From a virus, in the UHGV virus genome UHGV-0018629: a stretch of 64,000 nucleotides of DNA; one strand, given 5' to 3'. A model generated the notes under the pieces. It saw only the letters and a list, made by a program, of their open reading frames with translations, had not been told where the DNA came from and did not search any database. Numbering within the stretch: the first letter of the stretch is position 1; each line of letters opens with the position of its first letter. A program made the translations under genes and the position numbers. Below are positions 2,600 to 26,778 of this stretch, in pieces.

Positions 2600-4696
2600 T
2601 TATCCTTGAACGAACTTGTAAGGCATGTTTGTAATATCTATGCAAGACGCAATAATTCCAAGAGATGATTCTACTTTTTGTTTAACATTTGATGAAACAA
2701 ATGATGCAAAGTCAACTCTGTCTTCTATTTCAATATCACCTGTCATTGCAACTACTTCACCGGTTTCCATTAGATGGTCTCCGTCATAGATTACCGATTC
2801 GGTGAGTTCTTCTATGGTCATAACTTCAGCTTGAATGAGTTTTGTATTATTAGATGTTGTTCCGTCATTATTAGAAGCATCAGTTATTTTATTAACTTTA
2901 ACCATCAATCCGCGCGGTAGAATAACTTCAGCTTCTGTTGCTATTCCGAGACTTCCTGGATATACAACATTAACTTTATGAGCTCCATCAATTGCCCATC
3001 CTATTTGAACTTTAACGTATTCAGGATTTTCTTTATACGCTCTTATTTCATTTGGATTAATAGTTATTCCTTCTTCATTTTTATCAACTGTCAATTCATT
3101 ACGAGCTTCTGGTTCTAAAAGACCAATACCAGCATGTGTAATTCCAAAACGTCCAAAAATGATAGGAGTTAAAGAAGTAGATACAAAATTTCTGAAATAG
3201 AACACTTTATTTTTAACTAGTGCTTCGTATATAGGAGCAGTCATACTTTGAGCACGATAAACTGTGATGCCTTCCGGTATACGGTCACCATTTTCAAAAG
3301 CTGAATCTAAGTTATTTATAGCAGATTCAATTTCTTTTTCACTCATTACATCATATCGTTCTGGATTGTAACGACCTAAAAGAAGATTATTGATGTCAGT
3401 ATATCCTGAACCGCAATATTCTCTAATGCCACGCTTTTGTAATGGAGTATATTTAGAACCATCGCGGGCAATAGTAATATCAATCATTGAACCAGCACCA
3501 ATTCCAGAAAAACTGTAAATCATTCGTTTGAGGAATTTAGTTTTTGCTGCGTTCCAGGAATTTTTAGTTATTTCTTCCCAGACTTCATCTGGTTGTCCTT
3601 TACGGGTTTTATTATGACTAGCAAGCCATTTATCTTTATAATCTTCAAAGAATTTATTAACAGCTGCTGCGTATTTCTCTAAACATTTTATTGAAGTAGT
3701 TGGTTCATTTTTAATCGCGTTAAAAATTACATCTTTAATTTTTTCTGAAACTTCACCGACTTGACTCATTGGAAAGAATTTATAGTCATAGTGAAGTTCA
3801 TCTGCAGTTCCTTCAGCAATAATTTTTGCTGCCTTAGTTTTAGAAGCCAATGAATTAATTCCAAGTTTCATTTCTTCTGCTTCGGGAATTAAAGGAGCGG
3901 TAGCAGGTTTATTGAAATTAGCTGCGGTAGATTCATACTTCTGGAATAATTCACTTTCAAATCTAGAAGATTCTAATGATTGACTTTGTGCAATTGCTCT
4001 ACGGGAAATTTTAACTTTAACGATTACAGCTTGGTCAGAACGTTTATCGTTTTCTTGCGCAATAGATGCTGCAATTGCCTCATTTTTAGTTACTTGAGCT
4101 CCGGTATCTTTATTGATATAAACATCACCGACCTTCGATTCAACTTTAGTAAAGAGCTCGGTACTAATTTCCGGAACTCCTGGAATGTCTTCTAGTGATA
4201 CATTTTTGCGATGTATAAGAATATATGCATACTTTTTATCATAATCCCAGAGTTCCTTAAGAAGGACATATCTGCCACCTGAACGACTACGGATAAGTCT
4301 ATCAGCAATAACTTGAATTTGTCGAGCTTGACCAGCGGTTTTAGACTTAAGAATACGAAGCATGCAAGCATCAATTTTATACTGACGCATTGTTTGCATT
4401 GCAACAGTAAAAACTGAATTAATATAATTAATTGGGCTTGGACCGAGACCTTTCAATTTAGCAATTGAACCTTTAGCGGTTAATGTAAAAGGAACAATGT
4501 GCATCATTTTATCGCCCATTTTTAAATCACGGTTAGTATCACCTCCAGATGTATAGGTGCATAGACGAAAGCCTGGTTGTTCAATTGCATCATCAACGTG
4601 AACTGAAAAAATTTGTGGTATTTTCTTCTTTGGATTTAAGTTTGTAATCGGAAGAGTAGTATCTTCGTCAAATAATTCTGTAATAAGTTCCATCAT
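2600..4696 (-). CDS. alt: Alt-like ADP-ribosyltransferase (698 aa), paralogue 2, in tandem with the first
   Basis: First ~240 aa nearly collinear with ORF 539-2596, divergent centre, conserved ART motifs (YRAQ, FVSTSL, EAEVILPRG); 3-nt intergenic gap. Confidence 0.8.
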   Translation of the reverse strand: MMELITELFDEDTTLPITNLNPKKKIPQIFSVHVDDAIEQPGFRLCTYTSGGDTNRDLKMGDKMMHIVPFTLTAKGSIAKLKGLGPSPINYINSVFTVAMQTMRQYKIDACMLRILKSKTAGQARQIQVIADRLIRSRSGGRYVLLKELWDYDKKYAYILIHRKNVSLEDIPGVPEISTELFTKVESKVGDVYINKDTGAQVTKNEAIAASIAQENDKRSDQAVIVKVKISRRAIAQSQSLESSRFESELFQKYESTAANFNKPATAPLIPEAEEMKLGINSLASKTKAAKIIAEGTADELHYDYKFFPMSQVGEVSEKIKDVIFNAIKNEPTTSIKCLEKYAAAVNKFFEDYKDKWLASHNKTRKGQPDEVWEEITKNSWNAAKTKFLKRMIYSFSGIGAGSMIDITIARDGSKYTPLQKRGIREYCGSGYTDINNLLLGRYNPERYDVMSEKEIESAINNLDSAFENGDRIPEGITVYRAQSMTAPIYEALVKNKVFYFRNFVSTSLTPIIFGRFGITHAGIGLLEPEARNELTVDKNEEGITINPNEIRAYKENPEYVKVQIGWAIDGAHKVNVVYPGSLGIATEAEVILPRGLMVKVNKITDASNNDGTTSNNTKLIQAEVMTIEELTESVIYDGDHLMETGEVVAMTGDIEIEDRVDFASFVSSNVKQKVESSLGIIASCIDITNMPYKFVQG

Positions 4697-19247: not shown

Positions 19248-21512
19248 TCATAATTTACAAGATGAACAATCTTCAGCTTTTGGAGTTTCTATTTCATAAT
19301 CATCAGTACCAGAACCATCACGAGTATTATGATAGTAGAAGTTTTTAATGCCATAATACCATCCGTATAGCATGTCATCAATCATTACAGACATTGGAAC
19401 CTTTCCTTTTGGAAAAATCTGCGGGTCATAATATGTATTCGCTGAAGCTGATTGACATACCCATTTAAGCATAATAGCTACCTGCGTAAGATAAGGTTTA
19501 TTACCTTTCTTAGCTAATTTCCACGTATAATCATATAGGTCTATGTTATGTTCAATATTGGGCACGACTTGATTAAAGGAACCCTCTTTTGATTCTTTAA
19601 CAGAGACTGGTCCACGTGGAGGCTCGATACCGTTTGTACTGTTAGAAACTTGGGAAGATGACTCACATGGCATAAGTGCTGATAATGTGCTATTACGGAT
19701 GCCAAAGAGCTTAAGGTCTTCCCGCAGCGACGACCAGTCACAAACGTATTTTGGAGCTGCGATTTGGTCAATCTTTTTATTGTACCAGTCGATAGGTAAT
19801 TCGCCTCGAGACCAACGAGTGTCTGAATAATATTCGCAAGGTCCTTTTTCTTTGGCGAGCTTAATGGATGCTTTAATGAGTCCATACTGTAATCTCTCAA
19901 ATAGTTCATGTGTTAAATCGTTAGCATCTTCATAAGAAGCGAAGTTACTTGCCAGCCAAGCTGCATAGTTAGTAACACCTACGCCAAGGTTTCGACGCTT
20001 TTTAGCTTTTTCTGCTTCAGGAACAGGATATCCTTGGTAATCCAATAGATTATCAAGAGCGCGAACTTGAACTTCTGCCAATTCATTAATTTTATCTTGG
20101 TCTTGCCAATCGAAGTTATCTAACACAAATGCAGATAATGTACACAATCCAATTTCAGCATCAGGACTATTCACGTCATTTGTTGGAATAGCGATTTCAC
20201 AACACAAGTTACTCTGACGAATAGGTGCCTTTTCACGAATAAATGGCGTATAGTTATTCGTATTATCAATGAACTGCACATAAATCCTTGCTGTTCCTGA
20301 GCGTTCAGTCATGAGCAATTCAAATAGTTCACGGGCTTTAATACGCTTTTTACGAATATTAGGGTCTTTTTCTGCTGCTTCGTATAATTCACGGAAACGG
20401 TCTTGGTCTTTAAAATAAGAATAATAAAGCTCTCCACCCATTTCATGTGGACTGAACAAAGTAATGTAATCGTTCTTTCCGAATCGTTCCATCATTAGGT
20501 CATTAAGTTGAACGCCATAATCCATATGACGGATACGGTTTTCTTCTACACCTTTGTTATTTTTCAAAACGAGAAGATTTTCAACTTCCAAATGCCAAAT
20601 AGGATAATAAGCAGTAGCAGCGCCGCCACGAATTCCACCCTGTGAGCATGATTTAACAGCAGTCTGAAAATGTTTCCAAAAAGGAATGACACCAGTATGA
20701 CGCACTTCACCCATACCAATCTTAGAACCTTCGGCACGAATCATACCAACGTTAATACCAATTCCAGCGCGTTTGGAGATATATTCAACAATTGAAGCAG
20801 AAGCCTTATTGATAGACTTCAATGAATCACCTGCCTCAATAACAACGCATGAACTAAATTGTCGAGTCGGAGTACGGCAACCAGCCATAATAGGAGTTGG
20901 TAATGAAATCTGTCGAGTAGATACTGCTTCATAAAAACGGATAACATGTTTTAATCTATCAACAGGTTCATCTTGATGCAATGCCATTCCAATAGTCATA
21001 AATGCAAACTGTGGAGTTTCATAAATTTGACCAGTGGTTTTATCTTTAACTAGATATTTTTCCTTTAGCTGCATCGCCCCGGAATAAGTAAATTCCATAT
21101 CCCGCTCATGCTTAATTTTTGATTCTAAAAATGTAATTTCTTCTGCAGAATATTTTGATAACAGTTCAGGGTCATATTTCCCTGCATTTACACAATAAGA
21201 AATATGGTCAATAAATGAACGTGGTTCATACTGTCCATAAACATGCTTACGAAGAGCAAACATTAAACAACGCGCAGCTACATATTGATAATCAGGCTCT
21301 TCAACCGAAATAGAATTCGCAGCAGCCTTAATGACAATAGTCTGAATATCATCAGTTGTCATTCCATCACGGAGATAAGATTTAATATTTTCATATAATT
21401 CATAAGGATCGACTGATGTTCCTTCAGCTGCCCAAGATAAAACTTTAATAATTTTTTGCGGGTCAAAGCTCTGAGAAACACCACTACTTTTGATAACATT
21501 AATTAATTGCAT
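19248..21512 (-). CDS. nrdA: Ribonucleotide reductase large subunit
   Basis: 754 aa; N-terminal ATP-cone; active-site NLCCEIA; C-terminal cysteine pair. Confidence 0.93.
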   Translation of the reverse strand: MQLINVIKSSGVSQSFDPQKIIKVLSWAAEGTSVDPYELYENIKSYLRDGMTTDDIQTIVIKAAANSISVEEPDYQYVAARCLMFALRKHVYGQYEPRSFIDHISYCVNAGKYDPELLSKYSAEEITFLESKIKHERDMEFTYSGAMQLKEKYLVKDKTTGQIYETPQFAFMTIGMALHQDEPVDRLKHVIRFYEAVSTRQISLPTPIMAGCRTPTRQFSSCVVIEAGDSLKSINKASASIVEYISKRAGIGINVGMIRAEGSKIGMGEVRHTGVIPFWKHFQTAVKSCSQGGIRGGAATAYYPIWHLEVENLLVLKNNKGVEENRIRHMDYGVQLNDLMMERFGKNDYITLFSPHEMGGELYYSYFKDQDRFRELYEAAEKDPNIRKKRIKARELFELLMTERSGTARIYVQFIDNTNNYTPFIREKAPIRQSNLCCEIAIPTNDVNSPDAEIGLCTLSAFVLDNFDWQDQDKINELAEVQVRALDNLLDYQGYPVPEAEKAKKRRNLGVGVTNYAAWLASNFASYEDANDLTHELFERLQYGLIKASIKLAKEKGPCEYYSDTRWSRGELPIDWYNKKIDQIAAPKYVCDWSSLREDLKLFGIRNSTLSALMPCESSSQVSNSTNGIEPPRGPVSVKESKEGSFNQVVPNIEHNIDLYDYTWKLAKKGNKPYLTQVAIMLKWVCQSASANTYYDPQIFPKGKVPMSVMIDDMLYGWYYGIKNFYYHNTRDGSGTDDYEIETPKAEDCSSCKL

Positions 21513-21829
21513 AAGTCCTCAACTTGAAAATCGTCTTTAAACAATCGGTTAACTATATGAGCTATTATATCACCATGACACGGCTTTGGTTTACATGTGC
21601 ATCCTAGCCTCATTCCACGTAAAGGCTCTAAATGTGCTTTAGTTATTTCTCCGGATTTAATTCGACGTATAAAATCTTTTTTGAATAATTCAATGGCAGC
21701 CTCCCGGCTGCCAGCATCTTTACCGACGTAATTTCCCCAAAATGTACCACGGTGAATATTAACATCAAAGTCGGATTTATATATATTCACTACCCGGCAT
21801 AGACGGCCCGGTTGGTAATAATTCTTCAT
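21503..21829 (-). CDS. Hypothetical protein with C-terminal CxC...PCHGD motif (nrdA.1 position)
   Basis: ORF track 108 aa; overlaps upstream ORF by 53 nt. Confidence 0.5.
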
Positions 21830-22058
21830 ATTGTTGTTCCGTTAAAACAGTAATATCATAATAACAATCAGAAGAAGTTTTAACTGTGGAAATTTTATTA
21901 TCAAAATACTCACGAGTCATTTTATAAGTATAGTATTTTTTACCATAAATGATAATAGGCTGATTTGGTCCTGGAACTTCTAACTCACTTGGATTAGGAA
22001 GTGTAAAAAGAACGACACCAGAAGTATCTTTAAATCGTAAAATCATATATCCTCGCAA
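21777..22058 (-). CDS. Hypothetical protein (nrdA.2 position)
   Basis: ORF track 93 aa. Confidence 0.5.
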
Positions 22059-22066
22059 TAATAAAA

Positions 22067-22927
22067 TTACACCGCCATTTTTCCTTTAATTGGCGGATGA
22101 GATACATAGTTGTTAAGAACAAAATTATGCGGCTTTGCGAATTGACTCAACCAAAATACCTGCGATTCTGTGTCCCATTCATCAAATTCATCTGGAAATT
22201 TTAATTGCAATTCACATAAATCCATAGGTTCACGGCGTAAAATTTCTTTACATTGTTCTACGTGATTCATATAGATATGAGTATTACCACCAGAAAATAT
22301 CAAATCTCCAGGAATAAGATTACACATCTTAGCTACAATATGAACTAATGCAGCATATGATGCAATATTAAATGGAAGACCGAGAAAAACATCTACCGAG
22401 CGTTGATACCACTGCAAATCTAAATATCCATTACGAACATTAAATTGATAGAACATATGACAAGGTGGTAATGCCATATATTTAAGTTCAGCTGGATTCC
22501 ATGCAGAAACAATTTGACGTCTATCATTTGGCAGTTTTTTAATACGATCAACAACTTCTATAATTTGGTCTACACCGCCAAAATCGCGCCATTGTTTTCC
22601 ATAAATTGGACCAAGTTCACCACTATGGTATCCTAAATCTTTTGCTTGATTTTCGTAATTTTCATCCCAGACTGTTTTGCCTTGAATTAATGAATCATGT
22701 TGAATTAATCGCAAATCATTGACATTTGTACTTCCCGATAAAAACCATATTAGCTCAGCAATGCAAGCTTTCCAGGCAAGCTTCTTAGTTGTTACTGCAG
22801 GAAAACCTTTAGTTAAATCCCAACGCAATTTAGTACCAAACAGAGCAATTGTTCCTGTGCCTGTTCGGTCATCGGTTTCATAGCCATTTTCAAGGATATT
22901 TTTAATTAAATCTTGGTATTGTTTCAT
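22067..22927 (-). CDS. td: Thymidylate synthase, uninterrupted (no group I intron)
   Basis: 286 aa continuous; active-site [10 protein letters not shown]. Confidence 0.93.
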
Positions 22928-22940
22928 TTAGCACCTATAA

Positions 22941-23288
22941 TTAATATGGCTTTGCATCAAATTTTCTTCCAATTTCAGGTGTGAAATATAATTCTTTGCC
23001 GCGTTTGGAAAAGCGACCATTAATATGATAATTATTCTCATCAAACGTAATATTGCCAATATCCATAGCTTTCAACCAAGTATCGATATTTCTATCCAGC
23101 TTTATGTCAAAATTCCAATACGGAGAACTATTACCGAAAATAATACAAGCGGATTCAGTGAAACAACTACTATAAATCTTGTCTTTAGGAACTACTAATT
23201 GATAGACACCTTTAATAAATTGAGGACCCTGCCATTTTGGTTGTTTCGCGTCTTTTTCTAATAGAATAGGGTAATAATTAAAATTCAT
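22941..23288 (-). CDS. Hypothetical protein (115 aa) inserted between frd and td
   Basis: ORF track trimmed to ATG with GGTGGA Shine-Dalgarno; no recognisable nuclease motifs. Confidence 0.5.
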   Translation of the reverse strand: MNFNYYPILLEKDAKQPKWQGPQFIKGVYQLVVPKDKIYSSCFTESACIIFGNSSPYWNFDIKLDRNIDTWLKAMDIGNITFDENNYHINGRFSKRGKELYFTPEIGRKFDAKPY

Positions 23289-23308
23289 ATTTTCCACCAC
23301 GTATTATT

Positions 23309-24131
<823 letters not shown>

Positions 24132-24147
<16 letters not shown>

Positions 24148-24491
24148 TGAAAAGGGTCATGAGCATATCCGCTAGCGTCAATCATTTTAACTAAAGTTAC
24201 CATTCCTCTGTTAACTGCTTGCGCGATTTCATCAAAAACTTCGTCACTATCATCGTAAAGGTCATTAAAAAGTTCTAATACGTTCTTCTGAACTTTTAAT
24301 TTACGGCCGGCAATTTCGCCTACAGTAAATTCGTTTCCGCCAAATCCAGCGTAAAATGTAATTACACCCATTAACTGGCTTTCACGGGAATCTATATCGT
24401 GTGATAAATTAATAAAAGCCGTCCCAGGCGCGGTTTTAAGTTGGCAACGAATTTTTACTTGGGTAATTCCAGTTATATGAATGTTAGACAT
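24132..24491 (-). CDS. Hypothetical protein (119 aa)
   Basis: ORF track. Confidence 0.45.
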
Positions 24492-24501
24492 AATATTTTC
24501 C

Positions 24502-24744
24502 TCAGACAGACTTTTTCACAATTTTCCAATCAGCTTTAAACTGCTCGACGTCAGAATGGTAAATCCAAAATCCTGCACTTTCTCCATCCTCATAAAGAGG
24601 ACATCCATCACATTCATCTTCCCATCCCATATCACGTAAAAGATGTTCAGCTTTTTCAACAAGTTCAGAATCTTTACCGATGATATTAAAATACCATTTA
24701 CCTCTAACTTCTGAATCTTTGATGCTCTGACGTTGTAATCTCAT
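24502..24744 (-). CDS. Hypothetical protein (80 aa from MRLQRQ)
   Basis: AGGAG Shine-Dalgarno before internal ATG; ORF-track extension covers promoter 24770-24799. Confidence 0.5.
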   Translation of the reverse strand: MRLQRQSIKDSEVRGKWYFNIIGKDSELVEKAEHLLRDMGWEDECDGCPLYEDGESAGFWIYHSDVEQFKADWKIVKKSV

Positions 24745-24769
24745 TTTATTCTCCTTAGTTGATAAGGCT

Positions 24770-24799
24770 ATAGTATCACTACCATAGCCTGTTGTAAAC
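24770..24799 (-). promoter_or_regulatory. Early promoter (-35 GTTTAC, -10 TACTAT)
   Basis: gtaaac 24794-24799; atagta 24770-24775. Confidence 0.6.
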
Positions 24800-24801
24800 A
24801 A

Positions 24802-25062
24802 TTATTTTTGAATTTTATCGAGCCACTTACCAAGCTTAATCATTTCTTTAGTAGCCTTTTCCATACTTCTGAACTTAACCAATAGAGGATAGGTATCGAC
24901 ACCCATAACTAAACTGGTTACAAGACTGTGTTCACCCACAAGCCATAACGAATACGTTTGAATATCGAGCCCGTAATTTCTGTCTTTATGGACCCGTACA
25001 CCCATCACTTCAAATTTCTCACTAGCTTTTTCTACCGCATCCAGGAAATCATCTTTAGTCAT
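24802..25062 (-). CDS. Hypothetical protein (86 aa from MTKDDF)
   Basis: ORF track trimmed to coupled ATG. Confidence 0.4.
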   Translation of the reverse strand: MTKDDFLDAVEKASEKFEVMGVRVHKDRNYGLDIQTYSLWLVGEHSLVTSLVMGVDTYPLLVKFRSMEKATKEMIKLGKWLDKIQK

Positions 25063-25063
25063 A

Positions 25064-25450
25064 TTAGGCCTTAAATGTTTTTCGCAAAAGTTCAATGATT
25101 TCATCTACATTGTTTTCGTCAACAATGCAGTGAATTTTTGTCACGCCAGAAACTGTACCTTCATTAGCGGATTGAGGCTTTTCTAAAGTTACCTCAGTAA
25201 AGTATTTGAATTCTTCAGAGTAAATCTCAAAATACGTCTCAAGTGGGCCACCCGCCATGCATTCAGTGCCATCTTCCATAGTTACACGTACCACACATTC
25301 ACCAGCACAATCATCACTTTCCATTTCATCTACAACAAAACTAGGTCCGTGCTTCTCTATTAAATTTAGCATCATTACATTGCAACGGCACTCGTTAGCA
25401 AAGTCATTTTTAAATAAAGGGTTAATGATATAAGTTTTTCCAACTTCCAT
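25064..25450 (-). CDS. Hypothetical acidic, Cys-containing protein (128 aa)
   Basis: ORF track. Confidence 0.5.
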   Translation of the reverse strand: MEVGKTYIINPLFKNDFANECRCNVMMLNLIEKHGPSFVVDEMESDDCAGECVVRVTMEDGTECMAGGPLETYFEIYSEEFKYFTEVTLEKPQSANEGTVSGVTKIHCIVDENNVDEIIELLRKTFKA

Positions 25451-25495
25451 TTTGATTTCCTCATTTTAACGGGGCTGTAATAGCCCCCTTGATAA

Positions 25496-25726
25496 TTATT
25501 GTTCAATCAGTCCCATGTAAAATTCTGCGTCTTCAGAATCCATGCCATCGCAATATTCATTAGCCATAAAACGGGTGAGGTCTTCAAGAGGACCTTCAAT
25601 GACAATAGAAAAATTGCAATAATTAGGGTCATCGTGAATACTTGTGATACTAAGTTCAGGATAACGATTACGAATAATTTCTTCAATATATTCAAAATCA
25701 ACGATGTCAATATCAACTTTAGCCAT
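25496..25726 (-). CDS. Hypothetical acidic protein (76 aa from MAKVDIDIV)
   Basis: AAGAGGA Shine-Dalgarno before ATG at 25726; upstream extension in ORF track covers promoter/terminator. Confidence 0.55.
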
Positions 25727-25769
25727 ATTATTTTCCTCTTTAATCATCAGCAGTATTGCCGATAGTTGT

Positions 25770-25799
25770 ATAGTACCACAGTTTTTATAGTATGTAAAC
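25770..25799 (-). promoter_or_regulatory. Early promoter module (-35 GTTTAC, -10 TACTAT) with upstream A/T UP-like element
   Basis: Member of repeated ~90-bp module also at 42430 and 46245. Confidence 0.65.
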
Positions 25800-25820
25800 C
25801 GTTTTGTGAAAAATTTTTGA

Positions 25821-25847
25821 AATAAAAAGGGGACCTCTAAGGTCCCC
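25821..25847 (-). terminator. Intrinsic terminator after gene 32 (ggggacc-tctaa-ggtcccc plus U-run)
   Basis: Hairpin 25829-25847; A-run on plus strand. Confidence 0.65.
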
Positions 25848-25869
25848 AATTAATTAGTAATATAATCTA

Positions 25870-26778
25870 TTAAAGGTCATTCAAAAGGTCATCCAGGTCC
25901 GTGTCATCAGCACTAGATGAACTGCCAGAGCTTGAGCTCATAAAATCATCTTCAGTTTTTGTATTGAAGTCATCAACATTGAATGCATCCAAATCATCAG
26001 CAACTTTATCAGCTTTCTTAGCGGCAGTTGCTGCGGCACCACCCATCACAGCAGTTCCCATAACTTGACTGAACTTAGTGCTCAGTTCTTCAAACGATTT
26101 AAATTTATCTTTAGAAGTCATTTCAGAAAGGTCAACCATTTGTTCGAACAGTTCTTTCTGGAAAGATTCATCATCAATGTTTGGAATCGCAGATTGATTC
26201 AGGAATTTAGATTCGTCGTAGTTACTAAAACCAGAAACTTGTTTAACTTTCAGTACAAAGTTAGCACCTTCCCACGGACAAGTTACATCAACCGGAGTTT
26301 CACCCATTTCGACATCAACTGCAATCATTGCATTGATTTTATCCCAGATTTTCTTACCGAAACGATATTTAAATACTTTACCTTCATTTTCTGGAGCAGC
26401 TGGGTCTTTTACTACAAGAATGTTAGCCCAGTAAGAAGTTTTACGTTTAACAAGACCGTACTCTTTATTGTCAGTGTTGTACAAATCATTTTTACTGATG
26501 TACTGACATACTGGGCAAGAATCGTAATCACCGTGGGTAGATGAACAGTTTTCAATATACCATTTACCATTTTTCTTGAAACCGTGATTTACAAGAATTG
26601 CGAATGGTGCTTGTTCATCATTTTTAGACGGAAGAAAACGAATTACTGCTTGACCGTTACCCGCATTGTCGAGTTTCAGTTTCCACTCACCTTTATCTTC
26701 AGAAGAAAAACCACCTTTATTTCCAGCCAGTTTAGCCATTTGTGCAGCGAGTTCAGCAGTAGATTTACGTTTAAACAT
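25870..26778 (-). CDS. 32: Single-stranded DNA-binding protein gp32
   Basis: N-terminus [17 protein letters not shown] and acidic C-terminal tail recognised; about 301 aa. Confidence 0.95.

Follow-up and report, generated by a model that had tools for sequence, protein, structure and literature searches.

In the window, i.e., the whole 64,000-nt stretch of the virus genome UHGV-0018629 that was analyzed, the genes encoding dihydrofolate reductase (frd) and thymidylate synthase (td) are separated on the minus strand by an ORF of 115 codons (Table 1). The window belongs to Tequatrovirus and shows approximately 95% identity to several sequenced phages over 24 kb. The original prediction that an ORF with its own Shine–Dalgarno sequence stands between frd and td is borne out by the coordinates and by a GGTGG motif located in the 20 nt between the frd stop codon and the ATG of the ORF (position 23288). 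The frame can be extended to a GTG at 23300 (119 aa in the automatic ORF listing); the 348-nt form starting with ATG is the one annotated in T2 and T6. Two plus-strand ORFs within the frd–td interval (57 and 40 aa) were rejected as shadows of the minus-strand 115-aa gene.

Table 1. Features of the frd–td region of the window.
Feature	Position	Strand	Remarks
frd, dihydrofolate reductase, 193 aa	23309–23890	−	stop codon TGA at 23311–23309
Left copy of the 15-nt direct repeat, TAAATGAAATAATAC	23301–23315	−	repeat search and direct reading
Shine–Dalgarno-like GGTGG, 5 nt before the ATG of the 115-aa ORF	23294–23298	−	direct reading
115-aa ORF (RB32ORF229c; PHROG 1928, short form)	22941–23288	−	13.6 kDa, pI 8.8
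ORF–td spacer, 13 nt	22928–22940	−	short variant; holds the td Shine–Dalgarno sequence AGGTG
Right copy of the 15-nt direct repeat, TAAATGAAACAATAC	22916–22930	−	includes the td start codon
td, thymidylate synthase, 286 aa	22067–22927	−	intronless, uninterrupted frame

In addition, two further small minus-strand ORFs were noted between frd and frd.1. One of them (23890–24147, 85 aa, phrog_3183, "RB32ORF231c") occurs in T6 and T2 and is absent from T4; the other (24132–24491, 119 aa, phrog_3566, "RB51ORF237") occurs in T6 and is absent from T4.

The adjacency of frd and td in T4, as stated in the original prediction, is correct. In the T4 genome (NC_000866), frd occupies positions 145109–145690 and td ends at 145112, so that the two genes share a 4-nt ATGA overlap and have no ORF between them. 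Comparison of this junction across T-even genomes showed the 115-aa ORF in T2 and T6, and a check of T4 itself confirmed its absence there. The td gene of the window was likewise correctly described as intronless, since the alignment of the window Td with the T4 protein runs without a break over the exon boundary: residues 1–183 correspond to exon 1 and residues 184–286 to exon 2, which in T4 lies 1017 nt beyond exon 1. An association of the ORF with an intronless td was ruled out. T6 carries the 115-aa ORF together with the td intron and I-TevI, and T4, HY03, and SG1 carry the intron and lack the ORF.

As for the distribution of the ORF, it had been regarded as an unusual, extra element of the junction. 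The frequencies show the reverse. Of the 689 phage records that matched a 2-kb query around the ORF, 408 covered 80% or more of the query length. A tblastn search with the 115-aa protein found 549 phage records, of which 363 show 90–99% identity and 186 are below 60%; the former include T2, T6, RB27, RB32, RB18, Shfl2, and many field isolates. The contiguous T4-type junction, searched for with a 50-nt probe across the T4 junction, is present in only 32 records, namely, T4 with its re-sequenced stocks, RB55, RB59, vB_EcoM_112, G28, F1, FN, FL12, HY03, SG1, G2133, JEP6, and FL18. Approximately 349 other records match this probe only from the td-proximal repeat onward. The ORF is thus the majority state of Tequatrovirus (about 363 records versus 32), and at the frd–td junction T4 is the exception and not the rule. 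Nor is the arrangement new: the ORF is already annotated at the same position in T2, T6, and RB32, with T2 (AYD82824) and T6 (AXN58269) listing it as "hypothetical protein, RB32ORF229c", and hundreds of T-even genomes list the gene as encoding a hypothetical protein. As a discovery the finding is of little importance and ordinary for a T-even phage; its value is mainly corrective. No papers were found in the literature under the names "RB32ORF229c" and "phrog_1928"; the review by Petrov et al. 2010 (PMC2993671) refers to frd and td solely in connection with auxiliary metabolism genes.

The orthologues of RB32ORF229c in T2, T6, RB27, RB18, Shfl2, and others have the same position and length (348 nt) and 95–97% amino acid identity to the window protein, with four amino acid differences between the window and T2 copies. 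The window differs from the T2 type in its left repeat, which is closer to the td start, and in the rarer, 13-nt spacer between the ORF and td. This short spacer was found in the window and 13 other records, among them Shf125875, OLB35, PTK, AlbertHofmann, KMB38, JoYop, F2, and JQD51, whereas T2, T6, and the majority of relatives have a spacer of 45 nt. This longer spacer contains AGCTTCA followed after 12 nt by TATAAT, a motif that resembles a T4 middle promoter (MotA box and −10 element) and is absent from the window.

The 115-aa protein matches PHROG 1928 with E = 2.2e-34 (residues 4–111 against profile positions 2–125 of 126). All motifs of this family, i.e., Q16-x-K-W19, G27-x-Y29, G91-R-F93-x-K95-x-G97, and F102-x-P104, are present in the window protein; together with the profile match and the same-strand position between frd and td of a T4-like phage, they identify it as a member of PHROG 1928. 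Homologues with 29–44% identity are the next gene downstream of frd in Kanagawavirus CIP9, Jiaodavirus, Roskildevirus Cronus, Klebsiella phage phi1_146055, and Moonvirus Merlin, and homologues in this position were also found on three metagenome contigs. Copies with 61–64% identity are encoded by the metagenome contigs L009 and L010, in which frd and the ORF overlap by ATGA. The next ORF in L009, L010, CIP9, phi1_146055, and Merlin is comparable in size and is a long-form PHROG 1928 paralogue with an insert of approximately 22 residues (PTIxxYKxNPxxY) after the conserved Trp; in Cronus, a 144-aa paralogue is located upstream of the short form. The long form was found in 127 phage records, which represent a wide range of enterobacterial T4-like genera, and those matches for which an annotated neighboring gene is listed adjoin td or frd. 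L009, CIP9, and phi1_146055 carry a three-gene arrangement, frd-ORF1-ORF2-ORF3-td.

Members of the family in Kanagawavirus, Moonvirus, Jiaodavirus, Roskildevirus, Karamvirus, Gelderlandvirus, and other T4-like phages share with the window protein the motifs, a length of 95–140 aa, and the frd–td location, but only 29–64% identity, and their genes overlap the frd stop codon. In these genera the short form is often followed by the long-form paralogue and a 69-aa ORF (phrog_9550), whereas Tequatrovirus has the short form only. When 1.84 billion representative proteins were searched exhaustively with a profile, only 41 clusters were recovered, nearly all of 95–140 aa (a word-indexed protein search gave only 3 and then 12). 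One of the 41, an 899-aa repeat protein (P0030), was taken as spurious. PHROG 1928 is a small family, and each member of traceable origin comes from a T4-like phage. The suggestion of a mobile-element remnant at the junction gains no support from the synteny in several genera, according to which the family is native to the frd–td interval across the subfamily.

The linkage to frd and td is not absolute, since a distant long-form member (P0036, 139 aa) is encoded in another context on the metagenome contig L014 (4001–4420), away from frd/td and after an NMN-transporter gene and small ORFs. A further observation concerns P0012, a 195-aa NCBI protein from a 100-kb contig, in which an unrelated N-terminal sequence of 160 aa is joined to the last 35 residues of a Jiaodavirus PHROG 1928 protein. 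The likely source of this chimera is a Klebsiella phage in which either a deletion or an assembly error produced the fusion.

Comparison of the 115-aa ORF with its orthologues in T2, T6, and FriedrichZschokke revealed 12–16 synonymous and only 4 non-synonymous differences (dN/dS 0.05–0.07), and the same comparison gave 0.24 for frd and 0.26 for td. Amino acid identity to T2 is 97% for the 115-aa protein, 91% for Frd, and 89% for Td. The ORF is a working gene under strong purifying selection and not a chance frame, as follows from the low dN/dS together with the PHROG 1928 match, the 549 tblastn records, and a confidently predicted fold. Of the two possibilities offered originally, a remnant of a mobile element does not agree with an intact ORF that is under stronger constraint than frd and td and contains no nuclease motif. 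The other one, an accessory gene, holds: T4 lacks the ORF, which is thus dispensable in the laboratory.

In a promoter and terminator scan, promoter-like sites did not exceed the number expected by chance, and the stretch between frd and td was free of terminator-like sites; an Rfam scan of positions 21000–26000 gave a single chance match (E = 0.16). We infer that the ORF is translated from the frd–td polycistronic message. This would be an early/middle message common to both genes, with the ORF using its own Shine–Dalgarno sequence. In the other genera, the PHROG 1928 gene is coupled to frd via overlapping stop and start codons.

According to the AlphaFold2 model built on an alignment of 45 sequences (pLDDT 93, pTM 0.85; pLDDT 79 for an earlier model), the protein is a small, basic, beta-rich single domain with six strands and one helix in the order E6–12, E27–34, E62–64, H68–77, E80–82, E86–96, and E99–104. 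The pI of the homologues compared ranges from 7.8 to 9.6. In the 45 sequences, W19, G91, K95, and G97 are invariant and Q16, G27, Y29, F93, and F102 nearly so; there is no D, E, H, C, or S among the invariant columns. The homology search called for by the original prediction produced a family, PHROG 1928, and 549 records, but no function-bearing match, and the statement that the protein has no recognizable motif agrees with the searches of Pfam, NCBIfam, PADLOC, and PDB sequences. Specifically, no functional lead emerged when the ORF and its distant relatives were scanned against Pfam, NCBIfam, and PADLOC, and a profile search of PDB sequences gave only chance-level matches to dynein and TagH. 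A Foldseek search of the PDB with both models found nothing significant (best E = 0.17, TM ≤ 0.38), and a search of BFVD with the first model returned only uncharacterized T4-like phage proteins at E ≤ 0.001.

A recurring weak theme among the Foldseek matches is formed by OB-fold and small-barrel proteins (RPA14/32, Stn1–Ten1, RuvA domain I, CheW), with the best OB matches at E = 1–2 and TM 0.3–0.38. The order of secondary structure elements is compatible with an OB fold, as are the similar size, the several strands, the helix between strands 3 and 4, and the basic charge; on the other hand, no match is significant, identity is 5–15% with TM ≤ 0.38, and the fold of the window protein may be a distinct one. 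As to binding of ssDNA, RNA, or oligosaccharide, the pI range of 7.8–9.6 and the conserved W, R, F, and K residues are indirect evidence only. The predicted product is best described as a 13.6-kDa basic, beta-rich single-domain protein with one helix. Since residues typical of catalysis are absent from the invariant set, it would be a binding module rather than an enzyme, a reading suggested by this absence and by the weak fold hints. Such a module could bind nucleic acid in an OB-like manner or bind a protein partner, e.g., the dihydrofolate reductase or thymidylate synthase part of the dNTP-synthesizing machinery. Our best guess, made with low confidence, is a small protein that binds rather than catalyzes and is produced together with dihydrofolate reductase and thymidylate synthase. 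For the reading as a whole, namely, that the ORF is a true accessory gene, expressed as part of the T-even nucleotide-metabolism operon, that belongs to PHROG 1928, is tied to the frd–td interval, and encodes a binding module, the probability can be put at roughly 60%. Of its parts, the identity of the ORF, its distribution, conservation, selection, and synteny are firmly shown, as are the flanking repeat and the lack of a known fold or motif, whereas co-translation with frd and td, the binding role, and the direction of the insertion or deletion event are inferred.

The history of the junction was assessed from the sequences at its borders. A repeat search, independent of the direct reading, detected a 15-nt direct repeat (14/15 match, spacing 385) that brackets a cassette of 385 bp; repeats of such quality are expected 0.03 times per shuffled region. 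The left copy consists of the last frd codon and the frd stop codon followed by ATG-AAA-TAA, a vestigial sequence similar to the beginning of td (ATG AAA CAA TAC). This duplication, a mark of insertion, and the lack of the ORF in T4 are in line with the small insertion proposed by the original prediction. We tentatively favor an origin of the Tequatrovirus arrangement on a direct frd–td junction such as that of T4, RB69, and SP18. An old recombination event would have duplicated the first 12–15 nt of the junction on both sides of the 385-bp cassette, and the absence of the cassette from T4 would mean either that it never arrived there or that recombination between the repeats later removed it. 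In this case, the 15-nt duplication would be a scar documenting the entry or exit of small genes in a translationally coupled operon.

A possible, though less probable, history is pure vertical descent from an ancestor with the arrangement frd-ORF1-ORF2-ORF3-td, as found today in Kanagawavirus-like phages, followed by differential loss. Tequatrovirus would have kept ORF1 and Dhakavirus ORF3, and Mosigvirus, Gaprivervirus, and the T4 clade would have lost all three ORFs; T4 would then carry a deletion, nothing would have been inserted, and the flanking repeat would be a chance microhomology used by the deletion. The three-gene arrangement does exist in L009, CIP9, and phi1_146055, PHROG 1928 is native to the interval throughout the subfamily, and deletion between short direct repeats is a classical mutation mechanism in T4. 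More than 90% of Tequatrovirus records contain ORF1, and only T4 and its near relatives show the T4-type junction. Moreover, if frd is read through its stop codon, the frame stays open for 8 codons and ends at a TGA overlapping the ATG of the 115-aa ORF; an ATGA overlap of this kind is seen in L009, and it would fit an older frd–ORF overlap and vertical descent. JS98 (Dhakavirus) keeps an ORF3 with 81% identity to its L009 counterpart. However, the 9 nt after the frd stop codon, which are free of frd coding constraint, match td codons 2–4 at 8 of 9 positions (p ~3e-4). The single-copy, uninterrupted junction TATAAATGAAACAATACC, identical in T4 and RB69 (Mosigvirus) and near-identical in SP18 (Gaprivervirus), would need three independent precise deletions. 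Also, Tequatrovirus ORF1 has its own Shine–Dalgarno sequence and is set apart from frd by 20 nt, unlike the overlapping arrangement of other genera, and the ORF1 tree joins Tequatrovirus with L009/L010 (72% bootstrap), against the frd and td trees, which place L009 with CIP9. Taken together, the 8/9 match, the RB69 and SP18 junctions, the different small gene in the frd–td interval of JS98, and the ORF tree argue for insertion into a direct junction; against it, the left repeat of the T2 type matches the td start less well (6/9, p ~0.02).

The gene of JS98 (NC_010105) is an unannotated ORF of 68 aa at 3214–3420 on the minus strand, which fills the 202-nt gap between frd and td and is related to the third frd–td ORF of L009 (phrog_9550). 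Its ATG overlaps the frd stop codon, with coupling by AAATGA, and its stop codon overlaps the td ATG. As for the direct junction, HY03 and SG1, the two phages other than T4 with such a junction that were inspected, both carry the td intron with I-TevI; hence, the ORF-less junction might spread through co-conversion during intron homing.

With respect to function, it is unlikely that the protein is a counter-defense or host-takeover factor that binds and neutralizes a host protein and is found at frd–td only because this interval tolerates cargo. Such a role would suit a small, basic, non-enzymatic, phage-restricted protein that is early-expressed by position and dispensable in laboratory hosts, as T4 lacks it; the cargo of the interval varies by genus (ORF1, ORF2, ORF3, and others), and paralogue expansion and tree incongruence are typical of arms-race genes. 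Arms-race genes evolve fast, though, and the ORF is under very strong purifying selection within Tequatrovirus, and its linkage to frd persists across genera in which Frd is below 50% identical. No match was found in PADLOC, a library of defense and not anti-defense proteins.

Improbable at present is the proposal that PHROG 1928 represents a previously unrecognized fold whose role would be to assist or regulate, as an accessory subunit or otherwise, the phage pair of dihydrofolate reductase and thymidylate synthase or the wider dNTP-synthesizing complex. The family has been kept beside frd, often as tandem paralogues, across much of Tevenvirinae; its absence from T4, the phage used as a model, would account for the lack of studies on it. 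Gene order is generally conserved among T4-like genomes, however, and proximity to frd is therefore not necessarily a sign of a shared function. Being strongly conserved and confidently folded, with no structural neighbor, the family is a reasonable low-cost target for studies of T-even accessory genes.

A free-standing homing endonuclease or its decayed remnant, whose selfish mobility at an intron/endonuclease junction would explain the patchy presence of the ORF, is very improbable: the ORF does lie approximately 550 nt from the I-TevI intron site in td, is flanked by a short duplication, varies between close relatives (T2 and T6 versus T4), and is labelled "putative homing endonuclease" in BASEL phage records (FriedrichZschokke, FriedrichMiescher, AlbertHofmann, and others), but Pfam gave no match to GIY-YIG, HNH, LAGLIDADG, or any other nuclease family even at E ≤ 10, and nine further members and paralogues of the family were equally negative at E ≤ 1; acidic residues, His, and Cys are missing from the invariant columns, and Foldseek with the pLDDT 93 model found no nuclease in the PDB and nothing at E < 0.1. 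The T4 Seg and Mob proteins and I-TevI are comparable in their variable presence among T-even phages and in the nucleotide-metabolism block adjoining td; unlike them, the 115-aa protein shows neither the motifs nor the fold of a nuclease, has half the length of seg/mob proteins, and is syntenic across distant genera, and a dN/dS of 0.05 with 97% identity across hundreds of phages indicates a stably kept gene beneficial to its host. The endonuclease label of these records was rejected as unsupported by sequence, motif, size, or fold.

Finally, the td gene of the window is a mosaic. Residues 1–183 are 98% identical to T4 exon 1. In the segment of td nt 720–810 (window 22118–22208, minus strand; codons ~235–268), identity to T4 and T2 is only 34%, and approximately 30 aa of the window Td are replaced in comparison with these phages, the counterpart of the replaced segment being KELCELVISGLPYKFRYLSTKEQLKYVLKLRPKDF. 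The td gene of RB69 has a third version of the segment around aa 235–268.
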